Source: a virus
Taxonomy: Duplodnaviria; Heunggongvirae; Uroviricota; Caudoviricetes
Reading direction: 5' to 3' (one strand)
Length of the DNA: 64,000 nt
IMG/VR virus record: IMGVR_UViG_3300029305_001878
Coordinates: 64,001-128,000 of that record
Part shown: piece after piece, positions 24,301 to 56,172 of the stretch
Layout: every line of letters starts with the position of its first letter
How positions within the stretch are numbered: position 1 is the stretch's first letter
Made by a program: the position numbers and the translations under genes
The notes under the pieces: model-generated
Told to the model about the DNA's origin: nothing
What the model saw: only the letters and a program-made list of their open reading frames with translations
The model's database searches: none

Positions 24301-27010
24301 CAGCATTAAATAACTCTACATTAGTTGCTGCACCTGCATAACTCTCTCCTAAAAGTTTATTTGTAACTACTTGTCTTATAGTTTGACCTTCAGTTGCTTT
24401 AAGTCCAAAAACAGATGCTAATAAAGTAGGAATAAATCCTCCTTCAATAGATTTAGATATTGCTGAAATTCCAGTAGAAAGAGCAGAGAATCCATTAATA
24501 ATAGAAGGTAAAGACATACTAACAGATAACATTACACTACTAAATTTTTCACCAAAACTTAAATCTTCATTGTTTAAAACCTAAATTGCACTGTGTAATC
24601 CTATAAAACCTGCGGTTAAAGATGTTACGCCTTCTATAGTAGAAGATAATCCTTCTGAAAATATTTCAGTTGTATCTTTTTCATTAAAATTACCATTAAG
24701 ATTTTCATTTATGTCTTGGATGACTTTACCGTGCTCTTCATCTTTTTTCTTTTTTTCTGCATCTAAATCAGTACCTTCTTGCAGATTTCTTGCTAAATTG
24801 CGAGCCTCTTCTCGACCTTCAGTTAATCCATTAATATAATCATCTAATGCGTGAGACTGTTCTTTAAATCCGCCAGTTGTATTTTCTAATTCTTCATCTA
24901 ATTTTCTATTTGCTTCTGCTATTGCATCTACATCGCCTTTGGCTTCACGAACTTTTCTTTTATAATTTTCAATTATTTTTATCTACTCATCAGTTGCACC
25001 ATACTCTTGAAGTTTTGCTTTACCTAAGCCTTTAAAATCCTTGCTCATTACGCGTTTTCGTAATTCATCTTTTTTTGGATTATTACTATTTAAATCTTGC
25101 TAATATAAACTATTAATTTGTTCGATATAATCTTGATGACCTGACTAAATTAATCTATCTTCTATTGCTACTCTATCATTTTTATTATTAGATATATTCT
25201 AACTAATTGCTACACGCTATTCAGATAAATTATTAGCAACTCCCATTTTTTCTTTAATTAAATTTAAAGAAAATTCATCTATTTCATTATTATTTACCTT
25301 ATTTGCTAATTCGTTTGTCCACGCTGATTGATTCTGTAAATTAGCAAAAGCAATATCATTAGTTCGGCCAAAATCTGCATTTAACAAAGCCTCATTTGCT
25401 TCATCTTGCATACGTCTAGCCGTTCCTTTTACTCCATCTGTAATAATAGGTAAATTATTTATTGAACGACTAATTTCTTTAGTTAAATTCGGGCCTAATC
25501 CCCTTAATAATGCCGAACCTACGACTGCTAAAACTCCTGGTAAACCTCCAAGAGAGTCAATTAATTTTTCAATTATTCCTAAAGTTCCTTCTAAACCATT
25601 ATTAATACCTATAAAGAAATCTTCATCAATTAAACTATCATAAATGCCTTCTGCGGCCGCGCGCACACGCTTACTTGAGGCTTCCCAACTTTCAGCGTAA
25701 ACTTCCGCCTGTCTTTCTAATTCTCCAGTAGAAGAATAAGCAGTATTTAAATTTTCTTGGAATGTACTCCAATTATCCATTAATGCGATTAATTGAGCAT
25801 ATTGACGTACGCCTGCTACAGTTTGCGCGGTTGCGATTTGAGTATCTTTACTTAAAGTTCCCCATTTAGCACCTAATTCATTTAAAATAACATCCATTTG
25901 CTTTACTTCGCCATTGGCATCTTTAATACTGATACCAATCTTATCTAAAGCCTATGAATATTTATTTAAAGTAGTGCCATCATCCATAGTTTCTCCCAGA
26001 TTCAAACCTTGAACACGAGAGAATAATGTTTTTAAAGCGTTACCAACTACATCTGCGTTTTGACGAGTTTCGGCAGTGATAGTAGCAAGAGCAGTAGTTG
26101 CATATTCATAACTTAAACCTACAGTTTCTGCTACTGCTGCGAATTTCTCTAATCCAGTTGCAATTTCATCAGTACTAGAAGCGGTTGCCGCACCTAACGC
26201 AGTCATAACATCAGCATAGTATTCTAATGATTTACTGCCATTATCAAAGTTATTCCAAATAGCAGTCAGATAGTCAGATACTTCTTTTACAGATTCGCCA
26301 GTAACATTTGATACTTTTGTTGTAATATTAGTTCTTGCTTTTACTTCTGAATCACTTAAACCCTATTGATAGTAAATTAATGATGCATCAGTATAAGCAG
26401 TGGTAGTTACGCTTAATGCCTTTGCTGCTTTATTGGCTTCTTTAGCAAATTTAGCCATCTATTCAGCATTCTATCCACTAACAATTCTAATATTATTTAA
26501 TGATTTATTTAAATCTTGAGCATATCCATATGAAGTCTATAAAGCACCCATAAAGCCATGCATCATACTTGAAGAAAATTGCCACTTAATTGTATTTTTC
26601 ATAGTAGTGGCAAAATCCTATAGCATTTTATTACTCTTTTTTAAAGGTAATTCTGCCGTCGAAATTGACTGTGCTAATTTTAAAAAAGTTTTCTAGCCTT
26701 CAATACCTAGACTGGAAAGTTCTCTTGAATAATCACTTAAACTTTTTCCTGATTTGGATAAAGACTATGAAAATTTAGAAATATCTAATTTGCCAGTATT
26801 TACATTTGTCGCACTTTTTATAGCCGCTTTTAAAGAGGTTACTGTATTTAAAGCATCTTTAAAATCTGCGTTGATTTGCTATCCAGCACTATTTGTTGCT
26901 GGTTGTTTTAAAAGTGAATCAAGACTATGCTATAAATTTTCTAATTGCGCTTTAGCCTACTTTACGTCCGCAGTCATTACTAACTACGCACTATAAACCC
27001 TATCAGCCAT
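18374..27010 (-). CDS. tail tape measure protein (giant, up to ~2880 codons; TP901-type core, TM segment, coiled coils), TAG-rich
   Basis: ATG 27008-27010 with GAAAGGAG RBS. Ten frame-2 fragments (25952, 25217, 24119, 23408, 22457, 20861, 19964, 19250, 18374…) are separated by TAG. The hydrophobic block …IIIIGAIAAAIALLIKAI… lies in 24119..24532. TAA at 18374. The listed frame-1 ORF 18904..19119 is spurious. Confidence 0.45.
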
Positions 27011-27054
27011 ATAGATATTACTCCTTTCACTCTTTTATTTTTATATATAAAACG

Positions 27055-39470: not shown

Positions 39471-39535
39471 ACGACCCCTCCTTTCTATTAATTAAAAAAT
39501 TGCCAATCTTTTGCGTTAAATCGCTTTTTCTTCTT

Positions 39536-41230
39536 CTTATTGTCTTCTTCTTCTTTAATATAATACAATCCATATTCAAAAGCAGAAAACTTATCTTTCT
39601 TAATGCCTTTATTAGCCTATTTGAGAATAATGTTTACGCCTTCATTTTCTTCACGTAAATTCATCATCTCTTCTTTTAATATGGATGTTAAACTAAAAGG
39701 TTTTAAATATTCTGCCCTTTTTTCTGGAGTCATTTGCTAACCCATTTTTGTACCTAATAATTTTATTTTCGCGGCACGTTCATCAATAAGCATTTTAACC
39801 TTACCGGAAGAAAGTTGAGATTGTACATTCGCGTGCGCTTCTGTATTAATTGGCGCATTTGCTTTTATAATATAAACTGCGTCTTGTTCACAATTATTAG
39901 TTCTATATTTCTTATAATCTCCATCTGGGTCATTATAAATTCCAAAATCAGGATAAGTATCTCCATCATCTGGATTAATCTATGTTTTTACTAGATAATC
40001 TACTAATCCAATACCTAAACCATTACCGTCAATAATTAATCTTTTTGCATTATATTTATAAAATAATTTCTTTAATTCAATACACTGTTCTTCAAAATGT
40101 TCATTTGATATTGTATATATATTAACTAAAGTTTTAATAGATGCGCCTTGCGGCTATGGAGTGACCTTAAAAACGCATACGACAGTATCGCATCCTTTAC
40201 GTCCCACATCGCAAGATAAAATATAAAAACTATTTTTATTAGAACGTCCAGATGCTTCATATTCAGGTTGTTTTAATATTCTATTTCGTTCAAAAACTTC
40301 TGAACTGAAAAAAGCATCTTCTACAGTTCCAGACCATTTAGACTCATATTCTCTATCAAATGAAGCCTCGTTGTAAGTACCCTCATTTTTTTGGTCAGTA
40401 ATAAATGTTTTCTATTGTAATCCAACAGCAACAGGCGTTCGCCAAGTACCACCTAAAACTATACATCGGTCAGGTTGTGTAATCATACGAACTAATAAAC
40501 CAATTAATCTATCATAAGGGTAAGTATTTTTGTATCCAGCAGTAGTAATATAAATTTGACTTTTATTAACGGCCTCTTCCTCGTGCGTTGAACCATCAGC
40601 GGCACGTCTTGGGATAGCCATAACAGGAATAATAACTTCGCGCAATGTAGTATCATCGATACCAACACATTCTTCCATTAAACCCCCGTGTCTACGCTAA
40701 CCACGAGAACTCTCTCTCGCCGCAAGGTTATCAAGTTGAGAACCATTTTTAAATTTATAAACTACTCTATCTTTACCTTCTAAAGTTTTTCCTCGACCCC
40801 AATCAATTTCTCGAGAAAAACTTGGAATTAATCTACATATTTCTTGAACTTTATCGTGAAGAATACTAGCACCTTGTTCTTTACCTCCAGATGTAACAAA
40901 TAAATGTACTCCAGGATATAAAATACATCTAATCATAAGTGCCATAACTGATAGAAAAGATTTAGAGTAAGCGCGAGGGAATACCGCGTACACATACTAA
41001 AAACGCATAACGCAGCGCAAAAAAACTCTTTGATAAAAATAAAATTTAAATTCTCCTGGTTTTTCTTCTGTGCGCGTTCCTCGTACCATAAAATCAACAA
41101 ATAAATCTGGATATTCTCTCCAAAAGGCTGTATATTGTCTAATTACAGGTAAAACGGCTCGGACACGCTCTTCAGACAAACCAACCTTTTTTCGTTGGAC
41201 AGATAAATCTAATAAATTAGATAAAGCCAT
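39536..41230 (-). CDS. terminase large subunit (~564 codons, at least 4 TAG)
   Basis: ATG 41228-41230 with AAGGA RBS. Co-frame (2) ORFs 40997..41230, 40697..40993 and 40412..40678 are separated only by TAG (40997, 40697, 40412 verified). The frame continues with sense sequence (…KTFITDQKNEGTYNEASFDREYESKWSG…) to TAA 39536-39538. The C-terminal region has an RNaseH-like nuclease character. Confidence 0.55.
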
Positions 41231-42438
41231 TAAATTTCATCCTTTATCATAAACATATTTTCATCTTCTTCAATTTGTCCTTCGATAAATTCATTAAAAT
41301 CTTCAAAATCTTTATCAACAAGAGTTCTATCCAAATCTTCATAAGATAATTCAATATCATCTACGATATCAAACTCTTCATTTGCTTTTGCGTCTTCATC
41401 TTCTTTGGCATTTTGTTTTAATGCCATTTCAATCATACTACTTAAATTAGTTTCTTCTTCAATTAAAGTTCTTGTATATCTTTGCATATCTTGAATAGTA
41501 AAATCAACTTTGTCATTTGGCTATTCAATATAGTATCTTTCAATATATCCTTCTTTTTCACACATTTCAATTAATTCTCCAACAGAATCAACAAATTCAC
41601 CCTATTCGGCTTTGTTTTGAGCAGCAGTAAATTTACCAGACTTCATAAGTCCATCATACATTTTAATCATCTTTTGCGCTCCATCAACATCACCAAGGTC
41701 AAGTAGTTGATTTGCTTTAAGCGATGTTTTGCAAATTAATTTTAATGTATCAATATGACCTGCGGTTTGAATATCATATGACCCCATCATTTCTTCATAT
41801 AACTATTCAAGTCGAACCCATTCTTCAGGTCTATAAGTTTTTCCCCATTTTAATCTTAAATAAGTTCTATCTTCATCAGTTAAATCGTCATTAAAATTTG
41901 TTTCATTATCTCTATCAAAATAATCTTCTTCTTCAAAAGTTATATCATTTTGTTCTAAACGAGGAGAGGAAGGAGGTGGAGGCGGCAATAACTCTTCACT
42001 TGGTATAGCATAATCTTGACGGTCAAGCGCAAGCGCAATCTCATTATCATCATAACCTTGCTACATCATAGTGATTTTAAGTTTATTTGCGGCCATTTCT
42101 TTTAGATGTTCATTATCTTTCCATCTATAATCTTTATATTGTTTTAATTTCATCTTGGATAAATATCTACCAAGAATAGTTGTTCCTGTTAGTTTGGTTT
42201 TATCTTTGGCATATTTTACCATCAATTTCTACCATTCTTCTGGAACCCAAGGAATATCAACTTCCTATAAAATCCATAAAAAAGTTTCTGGATTAAAATT
42301 ATCAACGTGTCTTGTTATACATTTCTTACATTCGGGTAATTTACCATTTGGCGGATATTTTTCAGTGTTATATGAAGTGTAAAACTGTTCTTCCGCCATT
42401 GTTCTATTACAAGTTTTACAATAACATTGATTTGACAT
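41230..42438 (-). CDS. terminase small subunit candidate (~400 codons, N-terminal zinc ribbon, acidic C-terminus, 7 TAG)
   Basis: ATG 42436-42438 with AAGGAAAGTAGGG RBS. Frame 1 was translated continuously through TAGs at 42223, 42265, 42061, 41803 and 41602 into ORF 41230..41487. N-terminus MSNQCYCKTCNRT…CKKC. Confidence 0.45.
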
Positions 42439-46297: not shown

Positions 46298-46485
46298 AAC
46301 AAACGTTTTTCCCGAATCCGCACTTCATTTGACTAAATCGTTAAAGAATACACTAAAAACTAAAACAAACGATTTTCCCGATTCCAAACTTCATTTGACT
46401 AAATCGCTAAAGAATACGCTAATTATTAAAACAAACGATTCTCCCCTTTTTCTTTATTTGACTAAATCGTTAAAGTCGCGCACGA
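46298..46485. repeat. about 63-bp tandem repeat x3 (core TTCATTTGACTAAATCGYTAAAG) in a ~1-kb non-coding region
   Basis: Units at about 46298-46364, 46365-46430 and 46431-46485. The listed ORF 46329..46586 is just a translation of this repeat. Confidence 0.6.
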
Positions 46486-46582
46486 GCCTTGAGTGCCCTA
46501 ACTTTAGCGAATTAAAGTGCTACAGCAATAAATCGCTAAAGCGTTTGCAGGAAAACTTGCAAAAAAATTTTCCTAAAACCTC

Positions 46583-46698
46583 TTGACAAAAAGCGCACGA
46601 TGTGATACAATAAAGACAGTTAAGAGAGGTACACAAAATAAAAAAAAGAAAAAAAAATAAAAAAAACTCTTGACAAAGTAAACACCATTTGATATAAT
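46583..46698 (+). promoter_or_regulatory. two tandem consensus sigma70 promoters plus the start of a ~150-nt T-poor purine-rich leader
   Basis: TTGACA 46583-88 with TACAAT 46606-11. TTGACA 46670-75 with TATAAT 46693-98. Both have 17-nt spacers. Confidence 0.55.
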
Positions 46699-46857
46699 AA
46701 AGACAGATAAAAGAGATGAGCCAAGGCGGACGAAGTAAGCGAGAGCCGAACCAAGAACGCAAGGTAAAAACAAGACAGGATGTGCCGAGAGTGAGAGGGC
46801 AAAGCCTAAGATGCACAAAGCCACTTGTTGCTCACCAAATGAAAGGAAGTAATTACT

Positions 46858-47235
46858 ATGATGCATACTATTAACGAACTGTACAAAATCGATGGCGCAA
46901 AGTTCTACACCGCCGACTACATCATCAAGCACAACATCCCCAAGGCTAAGTCTTATAATGACACTAATGGCTGGAGCAAGTGTTATGGTTTGGGAACAGA
47001 CAGAGGCACAAAGAACATTCACACTGCTGATGGTGTAAAGGTTGTCTACACCTACGGTGAAAAGACCTACTTTGACACAGCAGAAGAGAGAGATGCCTAC
47101 AGAGTACAGCAGAACATCGCAAGGGCAGAACTTAACAAAAAGAACAAACTGCTCAAGGCTATCAACAGCCATTATCAGACTATGAGCGTTGAAGAACTTG
47201 AGGAAGTGCTAAACAACATCAAAGAGAGAGGTTGA
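46858..47235 (+). CDS. early hypothetical protein (125 aa)
   Basis: AAAGGAAG RBS. TGA stop lies inside a terminator hairpin (gagagagg…cctctctc). Confidence 0.55.
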   Translation: MMHTINELYKIDGAKFYTADYIIKHNIPKAKSYNDTNGWSKCYGLGTDRGTKNIHTADGVKVVYTYGEKTYFDTAEERDAYRVQQNIARAELNKKNKLLKAINSHYQTMSVEELEEVLNNIKERG

Positions 47236-47424
47236 TAAAAACCTCTCTCTTTCTTTGTCTGCGTGAGCGGTCGCCGCACTCCTAAATTCACTACGCTAAA
47301 GTGCTAAACAAATAAAGAGAGAAAAAATATGTAAAAAAAAATAAAAAAAATTTTCCCAAAACTATTGACAAATCCAGAAGTAAATGATATAATAAAGACA
47401 CAAAGAACAAAGGAGAGATACACA

Positions 47425-47664
47425 ATGTATACTATCACCGACACAATGGCAAGACACATCGAATACATCAAGCAGAGCGCAAAGAACTGCGCACTCTATC
47501 TGCGCAAGGACGCTATGGATATTCTGCTCGACAAGGCTTTTCACGCTTACCTTTTTGTATGCTGTGCAAACAACAAGTCTGTTGACTTCACACCTGCTGA
47601 ATTTATCCAGGAGTGCAAGGCAAATGAAAACTTCTTCAATTACTATCTGGCTTACGCTGAATAA
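47425..47664 (+). CDS. early hypothetical protein (79 aa)
   Basis: Promoter TTGACA 47365-70 / TATAAT 47388-93, AAAGGAGAG RBS and ATG 47425. TAA plus hairpin terminator. Confidence 0.55.
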   Translation: MYTITDTMARHIEYIKQSAKNCALYLRKDAMDILLDKAFHAYLFVCCANNKSVDFTPAEFIQECKANENFFNYYLAYAE

Positions 47665-48031
47665 GAGAGTGTGAAAAACACTCTCTTTTCTTTTGTCAGC
47701 GTGATCGGCCACCACAGCCCATACTTCACCCAATTAAAGTGCTAAACAAATAAAGAGAAGAAAAATATGCGGAAAAATAGTTAAAAAAATTTCCTGAAAC
47801 CCCTTGACAACAAGACCATCTTGTGATATACTTAATACATCCAATAGAGAAAGGAACACGAACTATGAAGAAACTAATTCTCGATATCATTACTATTATT
47901 GCGCGATCTGCTTGACTTGGGTTGCGTGGTCTTTCGTGGACATTGTCAGCGATAACTGCGACCCCAATCCACAACACGCAAACATCAATGCTTTTGTGCT
48001 ACTGGTTGATTAAGAAAGAGAGGTAAAAAAA

Positions 48032-48466
48032 ATGAAAGAAATGCTTTTCATCCTTGGTTGTGTATTTGTTACGGTCTTGTTCTTCGCTGCAATCATTTTC
48101 TTCACTGATAGGATTACTGGATGGTACTATGATAATCGGAATAAGAAGCGTGAAAAAGAACATCCTGAATTGTACAAGTTGTTTGATGCGGTCAATGAAA
48201 AATGCAGAGATTGTTGCCGTTGGTATAATGAACAGATTGCACCCAAGAAAAGAGAGATTGACAACATTCTCAAAGATTGGAATTATTACACTAATGAAAG
48301 AAGAGCGCAAAAAGAAGCAGAATTGAAGAAATTGCGCGCAGACCTTCAAATCGCTGAAACAATCGACAAAACTTTGGAAAGTGAACTTGTTGAACTGCGG
48401 GAGCAAACAAAGGACTATGTAAAAGAACATAATGTTGAATGGGCAAAGAAAATGGGCTGGACTTGA
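48032..48466 (+). CDS. early membrane-anchored coiled-coil protein (144 aa)
   Basis: AGAGAGG RBS. N-terminal TM helix FILGCVFVTVLFFAAIIFF. TGA inside hairpin atgggctgg…cagcccat. Confidence 0.5.
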   Translation: MKEMLFILGCVFVTVLFFAAIIFFTDRITGWYYDNRNKKREKEHPELYKLFDAVNEKCRDCCRWYNEQIAPKKREIDNILKDWNYYTNERRAQKEAELKKLRADLQIAETIDKTLESELVELREQTKDYVKEHNVEWAKKMGWT

Positions 48467-48623
48467 CAGCCCATTTTTTTCGTAGTCGGTCACTGACCCC
48501 GGAACTTCAGCGAACTAAAGTGCTAAAGAAAAATAATTGCAAAATATTGAAAAATAGTTGTTGACAAATGCTTCCTAATAGTGTATACTATAGACAGATA
48601 GAAAAGCAAAGGAGATAATAAAA

Positions 48624-48821
48624 ATGATGGATTACAGACACAGCGCATACAATATCTACACCGGCGAGATTATCAACTGCGAGAAGCCCAACTACTTGAA
48701 GCGACAGGTTGCCTACACCGGCAAGGTCAACAAGGACTATTTCAATACCAATAAAGGTGGTTGGAGATGGTCACACGACTTCGGCAAGAAGTGGGAAAGC
48801 GAAGGTTTTCCGACTAAGTGA
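48624..48821 (+). CDS. early small protein (65 aa)
   Basis: Promoter TTGACA ~48562, AAAGGAGA RBS, TGA and a terminator (aaaagggga…tcccctttttt). Confidence 0.5.
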   Translation: MMDYRHSAYNIYTGEIINCEKPNYLKRQVAYTGKVNKDYFNTNKGGWRWSHDFGKKWESEGFPTK

Positions 48822-48922
48822 AAAAGGGGATAAAAAAAATCCCCTTTTTTCTAAAAAAGGTATTGACAAATCAATCAATTGGGTGTATAATAAAGACAGA
48901 TAAAAGAAAGGGGAACACCAAA

Positions 48923-49078
48923 ATGAAAAACAACTACTTCGACACTCTCAACTGGAACTACATCGAAACCTGCGCCGAAGCAGGCATTTCCGTAGACTGC
49001 TACATCGATGATAGCCGCACTTGGATGAAGCAGATCTGGAATGATGGATTTGTAGAAATCCACGAAATTGGGGCTTGA
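48923..49078 (+). CDS. early small protein (51 aa)
   Basis: Promoter TTGACA ~48853 / TATAAT, AAAGGGGAA RBS and ATG 48923. The TGA stop lies inside the ggggcTTGACAaaagcccc hairpin, which is also the next promoter's -35. Confidence 0.45.
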   Translation: MKNNYFDTLNWNYIETCAEAGISVDCYIDDSRTWMKQIWNDGFVEIHEIGA

Positions 49079-49127
49079 CAAAAGCCCCAAGGTATGATAT
49101 ACTTAATACAACAAATAAAGAAAGGAA

Positions 49128-49433
49128 ATGAAAATAATGAAAACTAATAACACTATCAACTTTACCGAAATTTGTAAACTGGATGATATGCTTTGTTTGG
49201 CTGATCTGCCCCACACTTTCTCCCACCTGCACGATGGCTATCAGATTAAGTTCTATGCCGACGGGATGAAAACTATTTATCTTGATGATGTAGTCATTCA
49301 TTCTAGCTCCCACGGTCACGAAAAAGGATTACTTGAAACCTACAATTTGAATGCTTGCTCTGGTTATGAAACCGCTGAACAGGTTTTCAAAAGTTGGGTC
49401 AGATGGTATAAGAAAGCAAATAAAAAGGGTTGA
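49128..49433 (+). CDS. early hypothetical protein (about 98-101 aa)
   Basis: AAAGGAAATG RBS. The second ATG, at 49137, is the likelier start. The TGA stop sits inside the agggTTGACAacttcaaccct hairpin. Confidence 0.5.
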   Translation: MKIMKTNNTINFTEICKLDDMLCLADLPHTFSHLHDGYQIKFYADGMKTIYLDDVVIHSSSHGHEKGLLETYNLNACSGYETAEQVFKSWVRWYKKANKKG

Positions 49434-49492
49434 CAACTTCAACCCTTTATGCTATAATAAAACCATCCAATAGAGAAAGGAAATAAATAAAA

Positions 49493-49708
49493 ATGGAAAA
49501 AATGGTAATGACTGAAACCCTCGCTAATACACTGATGGATGCGCTTGCCTGCGTTGCGCTTTCTGCTACTGGCGGAGTTGATCCCGACAACATCAATGAT
49601 GAACAAGTAGAGTATGCTCAAGAATACGCAAGAAAGACTTTCTGCGAACTGCTCGACGCTTGGGAAGAATCGACTGGCAAAGAATGGGACATTGAAGTAG
49701 AAAATTAA
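49493..49708 (+). CDS. early acidic small protein (71 aa)
   Basis: Promoter TTGACA ~49432 / TATAAT, AGAGAAAGGAAA RBS, TAA and a terminator (gcgagggg…ccctcgc plus T-run). Confidence 0.5.
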   Translation: MEKMVMTETLANTLMDALACVALSATGGVDPDNINDEQVEYAQEYARKTFCELLDAWEESTGKEWDIEVEN

Positions 49709-49799
49709 GCGAGGGGAAACCCTCGCTTCTTTTTTTCTAAATTAAAAAATTACCTATTGACAAATTTATAAAAATATGATATAATATATATATAAAAAA

Positions 49800-49900
49800 T
49801 AAAAAATTTATTTTACTTTAGCGATTTAATTGACTAAAGTAAAAATAAAAAATTTATTTTGAAATTTTATTTACTTTAGCGATTTAATTGACTAAAGTGC
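49800..49900. repeat. 60-bp direct repeat x2, each containing the palindrome ACTTTAGCGATTTAATTGACTAAAGT
   Basis: Copies at about 49812-49840 and 49871-49898. A hairpin cggctcgct…agcgagccg follows at 49903-49945. Confidence 0.55.
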
Positions 49901-50129
49901 GGCGGCTCGCTACCGGGCGCCCTTTCCCTGCAGCGAGCCGAGTTTCACAAAGCAGGGCATTCACACTTTAAATCGTTGAAGTAGGCACTTTCACACATTA
50001 AAGCGCTAATTCCCAAAACTCCCCCAAATTTTTGTGCATTTTGACGAAAACTATTTTTTCAAAATCGGTTGACAAATCCGCATTTATCGAGTAAAATAAG
50101 GTATAACCTAAATCAAGGAGGTCACTACA

Positions 50130-50315
50130 ATGACTACTCTGTTAACTGCTGATTTTGATACCTACACTGCTATTGAAGGTTATGTATTCGATCTTCTGGC
50201 AGACGAAGAAACTGAAGTTGTTCTCTCTGAAATTCAGACTTTTGCTGCTGACCTCGGTGTAGCCTTTACTGAATGGGATTTGACTTCCTTGATGATGGAT
50301 TTTGAAGAAATTTAA
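50130..50315 (+). CDS. early acidic small protein (61 aa)
   Basis: Promoter TTGACA ~50069, CAAGGAGG RBS and TAA. Confidence 0.5.
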   Translation: MTTLLTADFDTYTAIEGYVFDLLADEETEVVLSEIQTFAADLGVAFTEWDLTSLMMDFEEI

Positions 50316-50332
50316 TTTTGGGGGTAATAATT

Positions 50333-50524
50333 ATGTATAAGTACTATTTCCACATTATTGATAACGAATTCAATTCTGAATACGACTATGAGGGTTATTT
50401 TGATAACCACGAAGAAGTCGAACCTTTCATTCAAGATAATGAAAAGGTTGGTAATATTATTACCATTATTTCTCCCTATTATGAATATGTAGACAAGGCA
50501 GATTGCCCGTCTTGTTATCTTTAA
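50333..50524 (+). CDS. early small protein (63 aa, C-terminal CPSC)
   Basis: GGGGG RBS and ATG 50333. The ORF track begins at an upstream TTG. TAA stop. Confidence 0.45.
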   Translation: MYKYYFHIIDNEFNSEYDYEGYFDNHEEVEPFIQDNEKVGNIITIISPYYEYVDKADCPSCYL

Positions 50525-50532
50525 TTTCTCTT

Positions 50533-50575
50533 TTCGTCAAAATGCACAAAAATTTTATTTGTGCATTTTGACGAA
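50533..50575. repeat. perfect ~40-bp palindrome TTCGTCAAAATGCACAAA-N-TTTGTGCATTTTGACGAA
   Basis: Seen directly. Belongs to an 18-mer family also found at ~50028, 50940, 50975, 51018 (inverted), 55285 and 55322. Confidence 0.6.
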
Positions 50576-50599
50576 AATTGGGCCGGCCGGAGACGAACG

Positions 50600-51045
50600 C
50601 GCAGAGGTAGTTGTAGGCCGAACTTTCACACGCTAAAGCGTTAGCGAATTAAAGCGTGAAAGCGGCACTTCATCGATGTAAAGCGCTAAATCCCGAAAGC
50701 GCACTTCATTTGACTAAATCGCTAAAGTGATTGTTTATTTAACTTTTCACTTTTCTTTATTTGACTAAAGCGCTAAATCGGTAAAGTGATTGTTTGTTTA
50801 ACTTTTCACTTTTATTCATTTGACTAAAGCGCTAAAGTCCGAAAGTGCCCAAGGGCCCCGGAACTTTCACGAATTAAAGTGCTACAGAATTAAATCGCTA
50901 AAGTGGCACTTCATTACGCTAAAGCGCTAATTCCCTAAAGTTTTGTGCATTTTGACGAATTTATTTGACTAAATCGCTAAATTTGTGCAATTTGACGAAT
51001 TCATTTGACTAAAGTATTAAATTCGTCAAATTGCACAAACTTTTC
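50600..51045. repeat. ~450-bp non-coding repeat field (TTGACTAAAG/CGCTAAAG units, a direct repeat TTAACTTTTCACTTTT(C/A)TTTATTTGACTAAAGCGCTAAA x2, three TTTGTGCA(A/T)TTTGACGAA copies)
   Basis: No ORF with an RBS. Shares its core with the 46298-46485 repeats. Confidence 0.55.
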
Positions 51046-51113
51046 AAAATCGCTTGCAATTCGTAAAATATGTAGTATAATAGTACCATAAGATAAAGAA
51101 AGGAATTGATACT

Positions 51114-51590
51114 ATGAAGAACTTGCCGAAGATGATTTGTTTCGATATGGATGGAACGATTGCCGACCTGTACTCTGTCAGTGGATGGCTTGAGGACTTG
51201 AGAGCGGAAAACCCTAGACCCTACCTTGAAGCCACCCCAATGTGCGATATGTGCGCACTGCGTGAAGTGTTGGAGCAGTTCCGCCAGATGGGAACAGAAA
51301 TTCGTATCATCACTTGGCTGTCTATGAACAGCACCGAAGAATACAAGGAAGCAGTACGAACCGCAAAGTTGGCTTGGCTTAACAAGTGGAATTTCCTGTT
51401 TGACAATTTCCACGGCGTGCAGTATGGAGCAACAAAGGCAGACAGTATTCGCAAGTATTTGTCCGATGGTGAAACTGCTATTTTGATTGACGATAACGCA
51501 AAGGTAAGAAGCGGTTGGCATATGGGCGAAGCAGTAAACCCGATCGAAACTGATATCGTTGCTTTCCTGCGTGGACTTTTGGAAGATTAA
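51114..51590 (+). CDS. HAD-superfamily phosphatase / 5'-nucleotidase-like protein
   Basis: Motif I FDMDGTIADL (DxDGT) and motif IV ILIDDNAK. Promoter TTGCAA-N-TATAAT ~51048-51078. Conserved translation-initiation region GAAAGGAATTGATACTATG. Confidence 0.6.
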   Translation: MKNLPKMICFDMDGTIADLYSVSGWLEDLRAENPRPYLEATPMCDMCALREVLEQFRQMGTEIRIITWLSMNSTEEYKEAVRTAKLAWLNKWNFLFDNFHGVQYGATKADSIRKYLSDGETAILIDDNAKVRSGWHMGEAVNPIETDIVAFLRGLLED

Positions 51591-51710
51591 AAAAAATCTT
51601 CCAAAATTCCGTTGAAGTGGTTGACAAGCGGCGGATTATGTGATATCATATAAGAGCAATCAAGAGCGATGGCAAACTTGATTGACATTATAAAAAGGAT
51701 CTGATAATTT

Positions 51711-52463
51711 ATGAACATTGACCGCAGAAAGCACTATCTTTTGTGCGTGGACACCGAAGCTGCAAATTGCATCCAAGAGGGATGGAAAATTAGCAAGAAC
51801 TCGCTTCCATATGACATTGGTTTTGCAGTGATGGATACACACGGGATGATTTATGACAAGTTTTCCTATGTCAATTCTGATGTGTTCTATGGTATGCCCG
51901 AACTGATGGAAAGCGCATACTATGCGAAGAAGTTGCCCCGATACCGTGAAGAAATCGCTTGCGGTTTGCGGACTGTGGCTGATACTTGGACAATTCGCAG
52001 AAAGATGCTTGAAGTCTGCGAAACATACGGAATTAAAGAGGTCGTAGCGCATAACGCAAGTTTTGACTATGACACACTAAATAACATTGTTCGATATCTG
52101 ACTGGTTCTAAAGTTCGGTATTGGTTTCCGTTTGGGACTGTCGAATGGTGGGACAGTATGAAAATGGCACAATCGGTTATTTGTAAAATGCCGATGTACA
52201 AAGAACACTGCAAAGATGTACTCGGACTGAGCAGAGCAAGCGCAAAAGCGGAAAATCTTTACAGATGGATTATTCAAAATCCCGATTTCACAGAAGCGCA
52301 TACAGGACTTGAGGATGTTCTCATTGAAAGTCAAATCGTTGCATACTGTTACAGACAGCACAAGACAATGAACAAGCGACTTTTTGCGAATGATTTTCCC
52401 GAAGCAACGGACTTCCAAATTGCGCTGATGCGCTCCATCAAAGACCACCCGATGCTTTACTGA
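51711..52463 (+). CDS. DEDDh (DnaQ/RNase T-like) 3'-5' exonuclease
   Basis: Exo I LLCVDTEA, Exo II VVAHNASFDYDTL and Exo III HTGLEDVLIESQI. Two upstream TTGACA promoters (51632, 51693). TGA plus terminator (ggggagaaaaaaatctccccc). Confidence 0.65.
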   Translation: MNIDRRKHYLLCVDTEAANCIQEGWKISKNSLPYDIGFAVMDTHGMIYDKFSYVNSDVFYGMPELMESAYYAKKLPRYREEIACGLRTVADTWTIRRKMLEVCETYGIKEVVAHNASFDYDTLNNIVRYLTGSKVRYWFPFGTVEWWDSMKMAQSVICKMPMYKEHCKDVLGLSRASAKAENLYRWIIQNPDFTEAHTGLEDVLIESQIVAYCYRQHKTMNKRLFANDFPEATDFQIALMRSIKDHPMLY

Positions 52464-52617
52464 TCGAAATATGGGGAGAAAAAAATCTCCCCCAATTTCA
52501 AAAATATTTCTTGACTTTTGAAAGTCTATCGCTTATAATAGTTAGTGTAAGGGATAACCCCTCACAAAATAAATCAAAGACAGGTTCAAGTCTTAAAAAC
52601 CGAAAGGAATTGATACT

Positions 52618-53037
52618 ATGAAAAAGTTCACTAAGAGAGAAAGCCTGACTGCCATTTCCAATGTCCTGAATGAACTGCTTGTCGCAGAGGGCAACACGGT
52701 TCTCGCCAATGTCAAGGACAAGGAATACACCGTACAGGATGCATTGGAATTTTGTTCCAACGAAATCAGCCTGTTGGACAAGAAGAACGGCACGGTAAAG
52801 AAGCCGACCGACAAGCAGATGCAGAACGAAAACTACAAGGAAGCAATTCTGCGTTATCTGCGAGAGGTTGCCCCGGAACACAAGGCAATCGCCGAAATTT
52901 GGGATAGCGTGGAAATGCTCGCAAGTAATCCCGATATGACCGGTCAGAGAATTTCCGCTCTGATTACACAGTTGAAGAACGAGAACAAGATTGTTCGAGT
53001 TGAGGAAAAGCGGAAAGCCTATTTCAAGGCAGTATAA
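52618..53037 (+). CDS. winged-helix DNA-binding protein, paralog A (139 aa)
   Basis: C-terminal ~70 aa (…YLREVAPEHKAIAEIWD…PDMTGQRISALITQLKNENKIVRVEEKRKAYFKA) are near-identical to 54407..54817, including at the DNA level. Promoter ~52510 contains the palindrome GACTTTTGAAAGTC. Conserved translation-initiation region. Confidence 0.55.
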   Translation: MKKFTKRESLTAISNVLNELLVAEGNTVLANVKDKEYTVQDALEFCSNEISLLDKKNGTVKKPTDKQMQNENYKEAILRYLREVAPEHKAIAEIWDSVEMLASNPDMTGQRISALITQLKNENKIVRVEEKRKAYFKAV

Positions 53038-53140
53038 TTTGAAGCGGTGGGGATTGAAAAAATCCCCACCGACCCCTTGACAGCAACGGAAATATTTGCT
53101 ATAATTAAGGGGCAAGATAACTAAAGGAGATGAAAACCGA

Positions 53141-53500
53141 ATGACAAACGAACAGAAAAAGCGTTTGGAGTTTACAATGAAAACTCTGAATATGACCGAA
53201 GCCGAAGTGCTTGCAATGTGGGAAGAGGACAAAGCAATCGACAAGGGCGAAAAACTTTATGAACTTGACCCCGAACTGGAAGCAGGAGCGAAAAAGGCTC
53301 GGCAGGCTGATCGCAAGAAGAACAGCGAACCTACCAAGAGAGAGCGCAAAGAGGACACCGACAAAACGGAAATCCTAAATGCTCTAATGGATAGCGTAAG
53401 TTCCAAAGCGGAGAAAATCGAAAAGACCAAAAGCGGCGAATTTGAATTTGTTTTCAATGGTCGCAAATTCAAGGTCGTACTTTCTGCCCCTCGCAAGTGA
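53141..53500 (+). CDS. early basic/acidic hypothetical protein (119 aa)
   Basis: Promoter TTGACA ~53075 / TATAAT, AAAGGAGATG RBS and TGA. Confidence 0.5.
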   Translation: MTNEQKKRLEFTMKTLNMTEAEVLAMWEEDKAIDKGEKLYELDPELEAGAKKARQADRKKNSEPTKRERKEDTDKTEILNALMDSVSSKAEKIEKTKSGEFEFVFNGRKFKVVLSAPRK

Positions 53501-53529
53501 GGGGCAGAAAAGAAAGTGAGGTAAAAAAA

Positions 53530-53715
53530 ATGACAAGGGAAATGCTAGAAATTGAATACCAGACTGCTTGGGAAACAATGCAGGAAGCAGAGCGAAATTA
53601 TAAAATGGCTCGCGCAAACTTTCACGATGTTGCAGGATTGCTAATGGAAAAGTTGATGCTTGAAAATGTGGATGTGCTTGCGCGATTGCGCGAAGCAGAC
53701 ACCCCTACGATTTAA
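53530..53715 (+). CDS. early small coiled-coil protein (61 aa)
   Basis: GTGAGG RBS and ATG 53530. TAA, followed by the bidirectional terminator gtgtgcgcggctggcgcacac. Confidence 0.45.
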   Translation: MTREMLEIEYQTAWETMQEAERNYKMARANFHDVAGLLMEKLMLENVDVLARLREADTPTI

Positions 53716-53760
53716 CCAATTAAAGTGTGCGCGGCTGGCGCACACTTTATTTTATTAAAG

Positions 53761-53816
53761 TTATCGATATACTTTTATCGATATATTTCATTTTTATCGA
53801 TATATTTTTATCGATA
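53761..53816. repeat. four iterons of the palindromic 9-mer TTATCGATA at 15-18-bp spacing
   Basis: Copies at 53761, 53775, 53794 and 53808. Flanked by two hairpins and the motif TTTAGTCAAATGAAG. Confidence 0.6.
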
Positions 53817-53835
53817 ACTTTAACGCTTTAGTCAA

Positions 53836-53915
53836 ATGAAGCGCCGGGCGCTGACGTACGATGCTCCCACGTCAGCGCCGGAATTTCCATTATACCACAC
53901 CGCCAGCATTTTGTC
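53836..53915 (-). promoter_or_regulatory. leftward promoter (TTGACA-N17-TATAAT on the minus strand) firing through a 12-bp-stem hairpin and the iteron array
   Basis: Revcomp of 53880-53912 is gcTTGACAaaatgctggcggtgtggTATAATgg. Hairpin cgggcgctgacgt…acgtcagcgccgg at 53840-53880. No minus-strand ORF downstream. Confidence 0.4.
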
Positions 53916-53923
53916 AAGCAAAA

Positions 53924-54035
53924 AGTTGCACAAAAATAAATAAATTATTTATCCCGAAATTGTGCAACTTTTTCTGCAAAAGTTACAAATTGTAATTGAC
54001 TTCCTATGAGGTCGGTGTTATAATGTTAGTGTCAA
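53924..54035 (+). promoter_or_regulatory. 13-bp-arm palindrome AAAAGTTGCACAA-N25-TTGTGCAACTTTT plus GTTACAAATTGTAA palindrome overlapping promoter TTGACT-N17-TATAAT
   Basis: An almost identical copy of the whole unit lies at 55452-55535. Confidence 0.55.
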
Positions 54036-54406: not shown

Positions 54407-54817
54407 ATGGCTAACAAGATGGTAAAGAGAGATTATTTCACTGCTCTGCGTGGCTTCATCGAAGCCCATCCCGAAGTGCATTTCGGCACTGATAAGCATC
54501 CCGACATCCCTATCGGTGATATGCTTGCGTTCGTGGATAACGAACTGACCCTGCTTGCTTCCAAGTCTGGGGCAATCAAGAAGCCCACTGAAAAGCAGAC
54601 TCAGAATGAGGTTTACAAGACCGCTATTCTGCAGTATCTGCGCGAAGTGGCTCCCGAGCATAAGTCCATCGCTGAAATTTGGGATGGCGTGGAAGCCCTT
54701 TCCACTAACCCCGATATGACGGGTCAGAGAATTTCCGCTCTGATTACGCAGTTGAAGAATGACAATCTGATTGTCAGAATCGAAGAGAAGCGCAAGGCTT
54801 ACTTTAAGGCTGCGTAA
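54407..54817 (+). CDS. winged-helix DNA-binding protein, paralog B (136 aa)
   Basis: Same C-terminal domain as 52618..53037. Conserved translation-initiation region GAAAGGAATTGATACTATG. TAA plus terminator (ggggggctaagccccccg). Confidence 0.55.
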   Translation: MANKMVKRDYFTALRGFIEAHPEVHFGTDKHPDIPIGDMLAFVDNELTLLASKSGAIKKPTEKQTQNEVYKTAILQYLREVAPEHKSIAEIWDGVEALSTNPDMTGQRISALITQLKNDNLIVRIEEKRKAYFKAA

Positions 54818-55289: not shown

Positions 55290-55336
55290 CGAATCCGCCC
55301 CGTAGAAAATGGGGCGGATTTTTTGTGCATTTTGCC

Positions 55337-55440
55337 TATTGACAAATCCAAGCAGATGTGGTATAATGGCCGGCCCTCCACGTGCGCTCGGGCCGGTTTT
55401 TCCATTATACCACGCCTCCCGCATTTTTGTCAAGCGTTTT
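55337..55440. promoter_or_regulatory. face-to-face consensus promoters sharing a GC hairpin (plus: TTGACA-N17-TATAAT 55340-55368; minus: revcomp of 55400-55432)
   Basis: The ggccggccc…gggccgg hairpin plus T5 sits between the two convergent -10 boxes. The minus copy matches the 53880-53912 promoter. Confidence 0.45.
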
Positions 55441-55451
55441 TATAAAAAAAG

Positions 55452-55535
55452 TTGCACAAAATAAAATCCCGAATTTGTGCAACTTTTTCTTGAAAAGTTA
55501 CAATTTGTAATTGACTTCTATGGCTTCTGGATGTA
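55452..55535 (+). promoter_or_regulatory. second copy of the TTGTGCAAC palindrome plus promoter cassette
   Basis: aaaaagttgcacaaa…aatttgtgcaactttt, then gttacaatttgtaattgactt…TATAAT. Confidence 0.5.
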
Positions 55536-55575
55536 TAATGTTAATGTAATCAAAAGAGAGTTCTAGAGGATACCA

Positions 55576-56105: not shown

Positions 56106-56172
56106 AAAAACTCTCTTTTTTTTATGCAAATTGACTATTGACAAATTGCGGCGACCTGTGGTATAATAAAGA

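Follow-up and report, generated by a model that had tools for sequence, protein, structure and literature searches.

A putative operator family in the early region of a large TAG-recoded gut phage, common to phi29-like phages and Clostridia chromosomes

The lytic phage phi29 carries sites for a regulator of its host, the 0A boxes of Spo0A, at its sigma-A early promoters and at both ends of its genome, and the binding of Spo0A at the early promoters and near the genome ends suppresses the lytic cycle in cells that enter sporulation (PMC2731898). The 0A box reads TGTCGAA, or TGNCGAA in its relaxed form, with G2, C4 and G5 as the contacted bases (PMC2731898, PMC3485338). The 64-kb stretch of DNA analysed here (positions 64,001 to 128,000 of the record IMGVR_UViG_3300029305_001878, hereafter the window) is part of a large uncultured phage and contains a family of 18-bp sites, TTTGTGCAWTTTGACGAA, built on the 9-base core TTTGTGCAW. 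As with the 0A boxes of phi29, this motif is found at the early promoters of a large phage and, in phi29-like phages, in both terminal repeats. In contrast to them, its core TGTGCAA is not a 0A box, the two halves of the site are separated by 2 bp instead of 3 bp, and canonical 0A boxes are not enriched. Judged from sequence, distribution and placement, this is a genuine operator family, i.e. a set of predicted regulator-binding sites built into phage early regions.

Other described systems share some of these traits. The sites of class I and class II activators, such as those of CRP at -41.5, -61.5 and -71.5, are likewise of the dimer type and occupy discrete positions upstream of the -35 hexamer at a spacing of about one helical turn; CRP, however, recognizes TGTG-N8-CACA, whereas the motif described here has the form TGTG-N7-CACA, is mostly asymmetric, keeps one orientation and accompanies promoters of consensus strength. 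With phi29 p4 and RK2 KorB, many near-consensus promoters share one operator at a fixed place just upstream of the -35, as is the case here; p4 and KorB are encoded by the elements that they regulate and their operators are unrelated in sequence, whereas the present operator is also found in unrelated phages and in host chromosomes. Iterons and operators of the RepE type resemble the family in that an asymmetric repeat of ~18-19 bp and a symmetric operator share a half-site, and in the occurrence of tandem arrays (in locus L210). They differ from it in that no initiator gene was found here, the sites keep a fixed distance from the promoters of many genes, and the host copies are single.

When up to 3 mismatches are allowed, TTTGTGCAWTTTGACGAA has 8 matches in the window (6 exact, one with 1 mismatch and one with 3). 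Under the same tolerance, 100 dinucleotide-preserving shuffles gave an expectation of 0.29 matches and a maximum of 2, and none of them (0/100) reached 8. A preliminary description of this DNA had counted at least 8 copies and regarded a number within random expectation as unlikely, which agrees with these figures; the copies that it meant are the same, with the positions 50028, 50975, 51018 and 55285 off by 3-9 bases (the coordinates are given in Table 1). All the 18-mer copies, together with nearby copies of the core, lie at 50.0-56.2 kb, where at least 5 further copies of TTTGTGCAW (exact or with 1 mismatch) each precede a promoter. Of the 12 exact cores in the window, 10 fall at 48-56 kb.

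Outside the window the exact 18-mer was found in 104 IMG/VR stretches, as against 0 for a reversed-sequence control of the same composition. In roughly one half of them the encoded proteins resemble those of the window, and a conserved early module composed of a HAD-type phosphatase, a DEDD-type exonuclease, a winged-helix protein and a 119-aa protein lies beside the motif in 15-31 of the 104. The aligned DNA of related loci, which belongs to late genes, is only 63-77% identical to the window. The preservation of the exact 18-mer in genomes that have diverged to this extent indicates that the site is held fixed, and conservation in relatives, on which the preliminary description had proposed to check the family, is thereby seen.

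Anchored on the core, the sites yield the consensus tTTTGTGCAAtTTGaC.Aa. The nine bases that follow the core are TTTGACGAA in 86 of 293 distinct cores, and in ~10 of the 293 the core is followed by (N)TTGCACAA, so forming a palindrome. A perfect 19-bp palindrome, TTTGTGCAANTTGCACAAA, was found in 94 IMG/VR stretches, about as frequently as the 18-mer, and the symmetric and half-variant forms share loci with the latter. The strong half-site is TTTGTGCA. Its partner, TGACGAA, departs from the mirror half TGCACAA as a fixed variant, which reads TTCGTCA on the opposite strand. The 18-mer is thus, as far as its anatomy tells, the common asymmetric form of a putative dyad operator with the symmetric form TTTGTGCAA-N-TTGCACAAA. 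The frequency of the symmetric 19-bp form points to a dimeric DNA-binding protein of the helix-turn-helix type. Dyad symmetry, conservation and positions fixed with respect to promoters were all found, as would be the case for the operator of a generic dimeric helix-turn-helix regulator.

A close relationship between sites and promoters was seen in two sets of loci. The window and the 104 IMG/VR loci together contain 145 distinct sites. For 48 of these a strict sigma-A promoter follows downstream on the same strand at a distance of at most 60 bp, and the gap to its -35 is -1 bp in 10 of them, 10-11 bp in 13, 20 bp in 14 and 30-31 bp in 3. The larger set comprised 1789 distinct strict promoters with 243 forward cores at most 110 bp upstream, whose starts lie before the -35 at -17 (76 cores), -18 (22), -27/-28 (27), -38 (16) and -42 (7), where a uniform spread would give ~2.4 per position. 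These classes are made up of 58, 19, 26, 15 and 6 groups, respectively, with unrelated downstream sequence, and the pattern is therefore not that of one promoter copied repeatedly. The sites also show a preferred orientation, the strong half usually pointing away from the promoter. Where a site abuts the -35 the first half alone is conserved, and where the gap is 20 bp the intervening DNA is an A/T tract resembling an UP element, as is ATTTTTTCAAAA between the site at 50031-50048 and the -35 of P50069. Early promoters of the window that lack the motif carry the A/T tract GAAAAAATTTYCnnAAAACCCC directly before the -35. Since the UP-like tract of motif-less promoters stands in the same place, the motif occupies the upstream contact zone of RNA polymerase.

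What is claimed from these data is a set of discrete preferred positions and not a strict periodicity. A clean 10.5-bp ladder of full 19-mers was considered and rejected, the best periodicity score being 0.27 and additional classes being present in which the gap is ~14 or ~24 bp. An UP element is an A/T-rich site for the alpha C-terminal domain that lies between -40 and -60 and in which neither G nor C is conserved. The motif lies at the same position; it was not classed as a plain UP element on account of the invariant G and C bases in TTTGTGCA and of its presence also far from promoters and as a palindrome. The 18-mer is not a promoter itself either, with TTGACG as -35: no -10 was seen at 16-18 bp in the copies checked by eye.

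The sites abut the -35 or lie upstream of it by roughly one, two or three turns of the helix, in the zone used by UP elements and by class I and class II activators. From there a bound protein could touch RNA polymerase, through the alpha C-terminal domain or sigma region 4, and such a contact would make early transcription from the sigma-A promoters of the phage depend on how active a host regulator is. As to the sign of the effect, we lean to stimulation or conditional control over simple occlusion, because no site overlaps a -10 or a start site. The placement in the UP zone, together with the weak -35 at host EF-G promoters (see below), suggests activation.

Evidence on the origin of the binding protein comes from phages of another kind. 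The complete linear contigs L048, L102, L260, L286 and L287 (13.1-14.5 kb) are phi29-like podoviruses and bear the motif and core arrays near both ends, 16-130 bp from them and at the conserved distances of ~16-21, 38-53 and 88-130 bp. Inverted terminal repeats of ~100-400 bp are present in L048, L102, L260 and L287. A phi29-type protein-primed B-family DNA polymerase is encoded in L102 and L287, and L102 also encodes a phi29-type (Gp16-type) packaging ATPase and the major capsid protein; L048, L260 and L286 share large phi29-type proteins with L102/L287 (BLASTP). A hidden Markov model search (E <= 1e-3) found no homologue of the window winged-helix proteins in these contigs, and BLAST gave no significant protein match between them and the early region of the window. 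Contigs L053, L226, L231, L236, L249, L269, L271 and L291 are related to this group.

The motif is also present in bacterial chromosomes. The scan of TTTGTGCAWWWTGACGAA against 185,579 species genomes returned at least 120 loci, a raw count that was discarded as evidence, the chance matches being estimated at 100-300. Among the matches listed, 80 of 122 are outside long open reading frames (ORFs), most belong to Clostridia according to the record titles as read, and 4 of the at least 120 loci are related to the window phage (bacterial metagenome-assembled genome (MAG) contigs, L210 included). The 92 proteins neighbouring the intergenic matches, which were read by eye, include an EF-G paralogue, S10, GlgB, AckA, GDH, HPF and CtsR. 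The motif lies upstream of the EF-G paralogue in at least 6 species, of rpsJ in at least 3 and of glgB in at least 2, one of them Ruminococcus bromii (L202). An unselected sample was made of 10 regions upstream of the EF-G paralogue, chosen by protein identity alone (59-88%) and with differing gene neighbourhoods. It showed the exact 18-mer in 2, a one-mismatch copy in 1, a core or palindrome-like form in 4 more and nothing convincing in 3, Petroclostridium included; the motif was scored as present in L312-L316, L318 and L321, absent in L317 and L319 (Petroclostridium) and doubtful in L320. The estimated chance of finding a core in 400 bp is ~0.02. In the host EF-G promoters, read by hand, the motif precedes a weak -35-like hexamer by ~31 bp, and a core-like ATTGTGYRW is seen near -17. 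In the S10 promoters, also read by hand, it is inverted, with the core at about -71, -71 and -49. These spacings appear to match some of the phage classes, those of S10 being near the classes in reverse orientation.

The presence of the motif in unrelated phages and in host chromosomes makes a host-encoded regulator the most economical binder. The preliminary description had proposed an operator set for either a phage regulator or a host factor, and the operator assignment gains support from conservation, the symmetric form, the promoter-relative positions and the copies at host genes. Its alternative can be narrowed, a host factor being more likely than the winged-helix proteins of the window. 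We give about an even chance to the explanation as a whole, in which the putative operator protein is encoded by the host and regulates genes of gut and rumen Clostridia, and an even to slightly better chance to the binder being of host origin in any form, Spo0A counted in. A more specific proposal, to which we assign somewhat less than an even chance, is that of a global Clostridia regulator with the operator TTTGTGCAA-N-TTGCACAAA and the asymmetric form TTTGTGCAWWWTGACGAA, captured independently by at least two unrelated phage lineages. Its operator would stand before the EF-G paralogue, the S10 operon, glgB, ackA, gdh and hpf in the host, would be phased before the early promoters in the large TAG-recoded phages, and would be carried by the phi29-like phages in both terminal repeats, beside the replication origins. 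Literature searches with motif strings returned primer noise only, and the motif is not in the Clostridium thermocellum DNA affinity purification sequencing (DAP-seq) paper.

Not all sites of the window adjoin a promoter. In the inverted pair at 50531-50577 the sites point apart, and perfectly matching arms of 20 nt (50531-50550 and 50558-50577) flank the 7-nt spacer AATTTTA. The preliminary description had called it a perfect palindrome of ~40 bp, which is right for the arms but not for the whole element, of 47 bp, whose spacer is not self-complementary. That description had also placed the copies immediately upstream of early promoters. This is so for the sites at 50031 (20 bp), 51022 (14 bp) and 55322 (abutting the -35) but not for the pair at 50533/50558, which follows a stop codon, is promoter-less on both sides and has no T-run on either strand. 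As single-stranded DNA the pair folds with -21.8 kcal/mol (z = -7.3), a value expected anyway from two back-to-back copies of a binding site, and the role as a cruciform or origin element once suggested for it is neither supported nor excluded. Divergent motif pairs recur in relatives with spacers of ~6 to 13 bp. An intrinsic terminator was tried as an explanation and rejected: the A/T-rich stem is followed by AATTGGGCC on the plus strand or GAGAAATTAAAG on the minus strand, with no T-run, and the pair is absent from the predicted terminator-like sites. The array at 50942-51039 consists of an 18-mer, a 22-bp element, an 18-mer, a 22-bp element and an inverted 18-mer. The 40-bp composite repeat within it is formed by the 18-mer and a TTTGACTAAAKCGCTAAA-type element, and the sites at 50982-50999 and 51022-51039 converge across 22 bp, an arrangement also found in the relative L069. 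The promoter-less pair and this array are best interpreted as high-affinity clusters, which might serve cooperative binding, looping between sites 400-500 bp apart, or titration of the factor.

Several points weigh against a host regulator that acts through contact with the polymerase. Apart from the spacing of the full 19-mers, which departs from a 10.5-bp ladder as described above, 5 of the 8 window sites are not at a preferred spacing. The hexamers of the phage promoters agree with the consensus in 11-12 of 12 positions, so that an activator should be needless, and promoters of this strength would suit repression by an over-stabilised or hindered polymerase equally well; with phi29 p4 at A2c and at KorB class I operators, polymerase contact at strong promoters does repress. 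As regards the identity of the binder, 100-300 matches of the bacterial scan may be due to chance, so that only the orthologous and the unselected loci carry weight, and an absence of similarity at BLAST level leaves room for a small DNA-binding protein common to both phage lineages. The window itself encodes two winged-helix proteins with invariant DNA contacts, and a phage-encoded binder would also explain the conservation within this lineage. If the sites were operators of this family (52618-53037 and 54407-54817), its members, made early, would modulate the strong early promoters, possibly shutting them by holding or hindering the polymerase, and would partly regulate their own gene. Consensus promoters are the natural target of a repressor. 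The family, of 80 homologues that are all metagenomic, has no Pfam or PHROGs match, and its winged helix was recognised only after alignment and structure prediction. The model is confident (predicted local distance difference test, pLDDT, 90) and shows a C-terminal winged helix, with forkhead, PadR/LmrR and Fur/PerR domains as the best PDB matches, at a weak E of ~0.01; the invariant recognition helix and wing, QRISAL..QL...V.RVEEKRKAYF, would fit an invariant DNA target. The gene belongs to the conserved early module of 15-31 of the 104 motif loci, and in L030, L067 and L098 it lies behind an 18-mer promoter with a gap of ~20 bp. In contrast, the motif is absent from the promoters of both window genes, the complete phi29-like genomes have it in their two terminal repeats without a homologue or any significant shared early protein, it is kept upstream of chromosomal genes in many Clostridia, and none of the 80 homologues (0/80) comes from NCBI or UniRef. 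The phage protein could instead bind another of the repeat families crowded into 49.8-51.1 kb, and the (C/G)TAAAG(C/T)G units may be its target. We consider a phage winged-helix binder, the main rival, to be rather unlikely.

A host factor of known identity, Spo0A, would make the sites 0A boxes, in parallel with phi29. In its relaxed form TGNCGAA the box accommodates the second half TGACGAA, which keeps the contacted G2, C4 and G5 (PMC3485338), the phi29-like contigs bear the motif near both ends as phi29 does its 0A boxes (PMC2731898), and the likely hosts are Clostridia. We nevertheless consider it very improbable: in TGTGCAA, the half that is conserved best, G and C stand in exchanged order at the contacted positions 4 and 5; a spacing of 2 bp (TGTGCAW-TT-TGACGAA) instead of 3 separates the halves; the symmetric form, about as common, is built as an inverted repeat and contains no CGAA; the position equivalent to G5 after the core is G in 144 of 293 sites only; and among the four TGNCGAA variants the canonical TGTCGAA has the lowest density in the viral loci (88 per Mb vs 320 for TGACGAA). 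The genes adjoining the motif in hosts code for the EF-G paralogue, rpsJ, glgB, ackA, gdh and hpf, with no spo0A/spoII product among the 92 neighbours read, a small sample taken from exact 18-mers only. As it happened, the loci retrieved contained no spo0A gene. A role in replication or partition, in which the arrays of 49.8-51.1 kb would serve an initiator or a partition protein as iterons or a centromere, is improbable as well. The asymmetric 18-mer would then be the iteron and the symmetric form a dimer operator, as with RepE of plasmid F, and the two do share one half-site. The sites cluster in a mostly non-coding stretch of 1.3 kb with several repeat families, an extremely A/T-rich segment lies downstream of P49757, genes for nucleotide metabolism and an exonuclease adjoin the region, L210 (a bacterial-MAG contig with a protein match to the window phage) has a tandem array with a 25-bp period, and in the phi29-like genomes the sites are at conserved distances from both ends, where protein-primed replication starts. 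Such a role does not account for the exact placement, 17-18 bp before the -35 of many unrelated genes, of ~40% of the forward cores seen in the 110 bp that precede strict promoters, nor for the single motif upstream of host genes in many species, and no initiator gene was recognised in the window by Pfam and PHROGs scans of the early ORFs. For the inverted pair only, a further reading was weighed, in which the P50069 transcript has the pair as a 3'-terminal RNA hairpin (processing site, stabiliser or terminator). The pair starts 7 bases past the stop of ORF 50333-50524 and would make a perfect 20-bp stem; against this reading, which has a similarly low probability, stand the A/T-rich stem, the missing T-runs, the lack of any Rfam family at threshold, the different spacers among the divergent pairs of relatives and the identity of each arm with a complete DNA motif copy that is also found singly at promoters. 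Within 43.5-64 kb Rfam gave 7 weak matches, all far below gathering scores, which are hairpin look-alikes.

The operators of other known regulators were compared with the motif and set aside. CRP/FNR and Rex bind TGTG-N8-CACA (TGTGA-N6-TCACA and TTGTGAA-N4-TTCACAA), whereas the symmetric form here is TGTG-N7-CACA, with an odd centre. This spacing was fixed by the search pattern in the 94 stretches, and other palindrome variants have the same length. The CtsR operator is a direct heptad repeat, (A/G)GTCAAA, with a 3-nt spacer; the site reads TTTGTGC-AW-TTTGACG on the other strand, with a 2-nt spacer and a first heptad that agrees at 5/7, and the inverted-repeat form does not fit. In by-eye comparisons with consensus sequences, which yield leads only, neither these operators nor the DnaA box, cre, CodY, Fur-family and LysR-type boxes fitted both spacing and sequence.

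Almost nothing is known about early-gene control in the large stop-codon-recoded phages of the gut, which lack cultured hosts, and the operator gives a concrete handle on it. It has an exact sequence, preferred positions and a symmetric form, and it is common to phi29-like phages and to host promoters, including one of the cultivable Ruminococcus bromii (L202). A 19-bp probe could fish out the binding protein, genome scans could predict the host regulon, and the motif may be of use in assigning uncultured phages to hosts among the Clostridia. Should the binder prove to be a host regulator, several phage lineages would read the same host signal for early expression or the timing of replication, and the paradigm of phi29 and Spo0A would be extended to the gut virome. 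A global Clostridia regulator, if real, would amount to a general host-state sensor for uncultured gut phages, like Spo0A for phi29 but with a different factor and a far wider spread.

Table 1. Motif copies, associated promoters and winged-helix genes in the window.
Feature	Coordinates	Strand	Remarks
Full 18-bp site	50031-50048	+	exact; ends 20 bp before -35 of P50069
Sigma-A-type promoter P50069, TTGACA-17-TAAAAT	50069-50097	+	precedes ORFs 50130-50315 and 50333-50524
Inverted pair of full sites	50531-50577	.	50533-50550(-) and 50558-50575(+), both exact
Full 18-bp site	50942-50959	+	exact; unit 1 of 40-bp composite repeat
Full 18-bp site	50982-50999	+	exact; unit 2 of 40-bp composite repeat
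Full 18-bp site	51022-51039	-	exact; 14 bp before -35-like TTGCAA of P51054
Promoter P51054, TTGCAA-16-TATAAT	51054-51081	+	of HAD-type phosphatase gene 51114-51590
Winged-helix protein, 139 aa	52618-53037	+	recognition helix and wing invariant over 39 aligned sequences
Core-only site TTTGTGCAA	53926-53934	-	8 bp before -35 of minus-strand P53917, -17 class
Core-like site ATTGTGCAA	53959-53967	+	28 bp before -35 of P53996; core start ~-37
Winged-helix paralogue, 136 aa	54407-54817	+	paralogue of the 52618-53037 protein
One-mismatch site GTTGTGCAATTTGACGAA	55276-55293	+	45 bp before -35 of P55339
Proximal site TTTGTGCATTTTGCCTAT, degenerate second half	55322-55339	+	3 mismatches; abuts P55339
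Core-only site TTTGTGCAA	55452-55460	-	18 bp before -35 of minus-strand P55433
Core-only site TTTGTGCAA	55474-55482	+	28 bp before -35 of P55511
Variant proximal site TTTATGCAAATTGACTAT	56121-56138	+	abuts -35 of P56138; core TTTATGCAA at 56121-56129

The phage has two regions that differ in the use of the code. The late genes, on the minus strand at 1-43556, are long and continuous only with TAG as an amino acid codon: 32 ORFs of at least 200 aa are obtained on this strand with TAG as sense vs 14 under the standard code. In-frame TAG codons number 7 in the terminase gene (39488-41236) and 52 in the ORF of 2886 aa at 18374-27034, and TAA ends all the long TAG-recoded ORFs checked. ARAGORN found no tRNA genes in the window. 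With TAG read as Q, the terminase aligns over its full length with those of large Firmicutes phages, at 60% identity to an uncultured faecal phage and ~46% to the Enterococcus phages VRE9_4, H1 and EF1 and Geobacillus virus E3. From 43.6 kb on, the genes are small, mainly on the plus strand and in standard code, and ~25 promoters of the sigma-A type that are close to consensus (TTGACA-17-TATAAT, in many cases with an extended -10) lie at 46-57 kb; from these promoters and the code, this would be the early region. Among ~40 early ORFs scanned against Pfam and PHROGs, none matched a helix-turn-helix family. The longest contig with a protein identical to the window winged-helix protein P0001 measures 185,543 bp. 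Megablast with 49.5-52.5 kb matched no phage record, and a distant search gave one weak match, to Phage Phass-1.

In relatives of the phage the homologous phosphatase gene is also behind an 18-mer-bearing promoter, with a gap of ~10 bp. The small and very acidic ORFs 50130-50315 (61 aa) and 50333-50524 (63 aa) have no family match, and tblastn found no homologues of them in the 104 motif-bearing loci; 18-mer sites flank the two, at 50031 upstream and at 50533/50558 just past the second stop. The last base of the proximal site at 55322-55339 is the first T of the -35 TTGACA of P55339 (55339-55367). The site at 55474-55482 belongs to a module with divergent promoters that has a duplicate 1515 bp upstream. 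This module occupies 53889-54024 and again 55404-55539, and in each copy a divergent pair of cores lies between back-to-back promoters, P53917(-) with P53996(+) and P55433(-) with P55511(+). P55433(-) faces P55339(+), and their transcripts would overlap by ~20 nt. No obvious ORF is seen behind the minus-strand promoters of the module, which may yield short antisense or non-coding RNAs.

A second repeat family, of the 8-bp units (C/G)TAAAG(C/T)G, for example CATTTGACTAAAKCGCTAAAG, extends over 46328-53836, with units for instance at 46328, 46394, 46457, 50709, 50760, 50819, 50964 and 51004 on the plus strand and at 53836 on the minus strand, and also at 49815-49898. The near-palindromic ACTTTAGCGATTTAATTGACTAAAGT occurs twice and CACTTTCACACNTTAAAGCG is a related element. 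These repeats interleave with the 18-mers and adjoin them also in L032, L043, L061, L069 and L178. Between the inverted pair and the array that starts at 50942, two tandem 59-bp units with 93% identity occupy the non-coding 50714-50831. Short G+C-rich islands, among them GGCCGGCC, stand out in very A/T-rich non-coding DNA at 49901-49945, 50581-50620 and 50845-50860 and have no Rfam match; sequences containing GGCCGGCC follow the -10 of several motif-bearing promoters in L046, L051, L058 and L114.

Motif copies in a different setting were seen in other genomes. L008, L015, L022, L024, L041, L044, L050, L060, L070 and L073, a further group of large phage contigs, carry a single 18-mer in the near-identical context GGTCATTTT-18-mer-AAGTTCAAAAAACAGCC. 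Their contigs measure 23-222 kb, several exceeding 200 kb, and the fetched stretches have ~30-34% G+C and no protein similarity to the window; the group could represent another lineage or a part of related genomes outside the coverage of the window. In L107, L116 and L205, from one Bacillota MAG, and in L173 and L186, from another MAG, the 18-mer is located inside a longer element with several copies in each genome, CTACATCACTT..TAGTAG-18-mer-GCTA.ATT.TTCGAGGGGCTTTTGACAC. The copy in L116 lies upstream of a small sigma-70-like gene, and the element looks like a mobile or repeated regulatory cassette.

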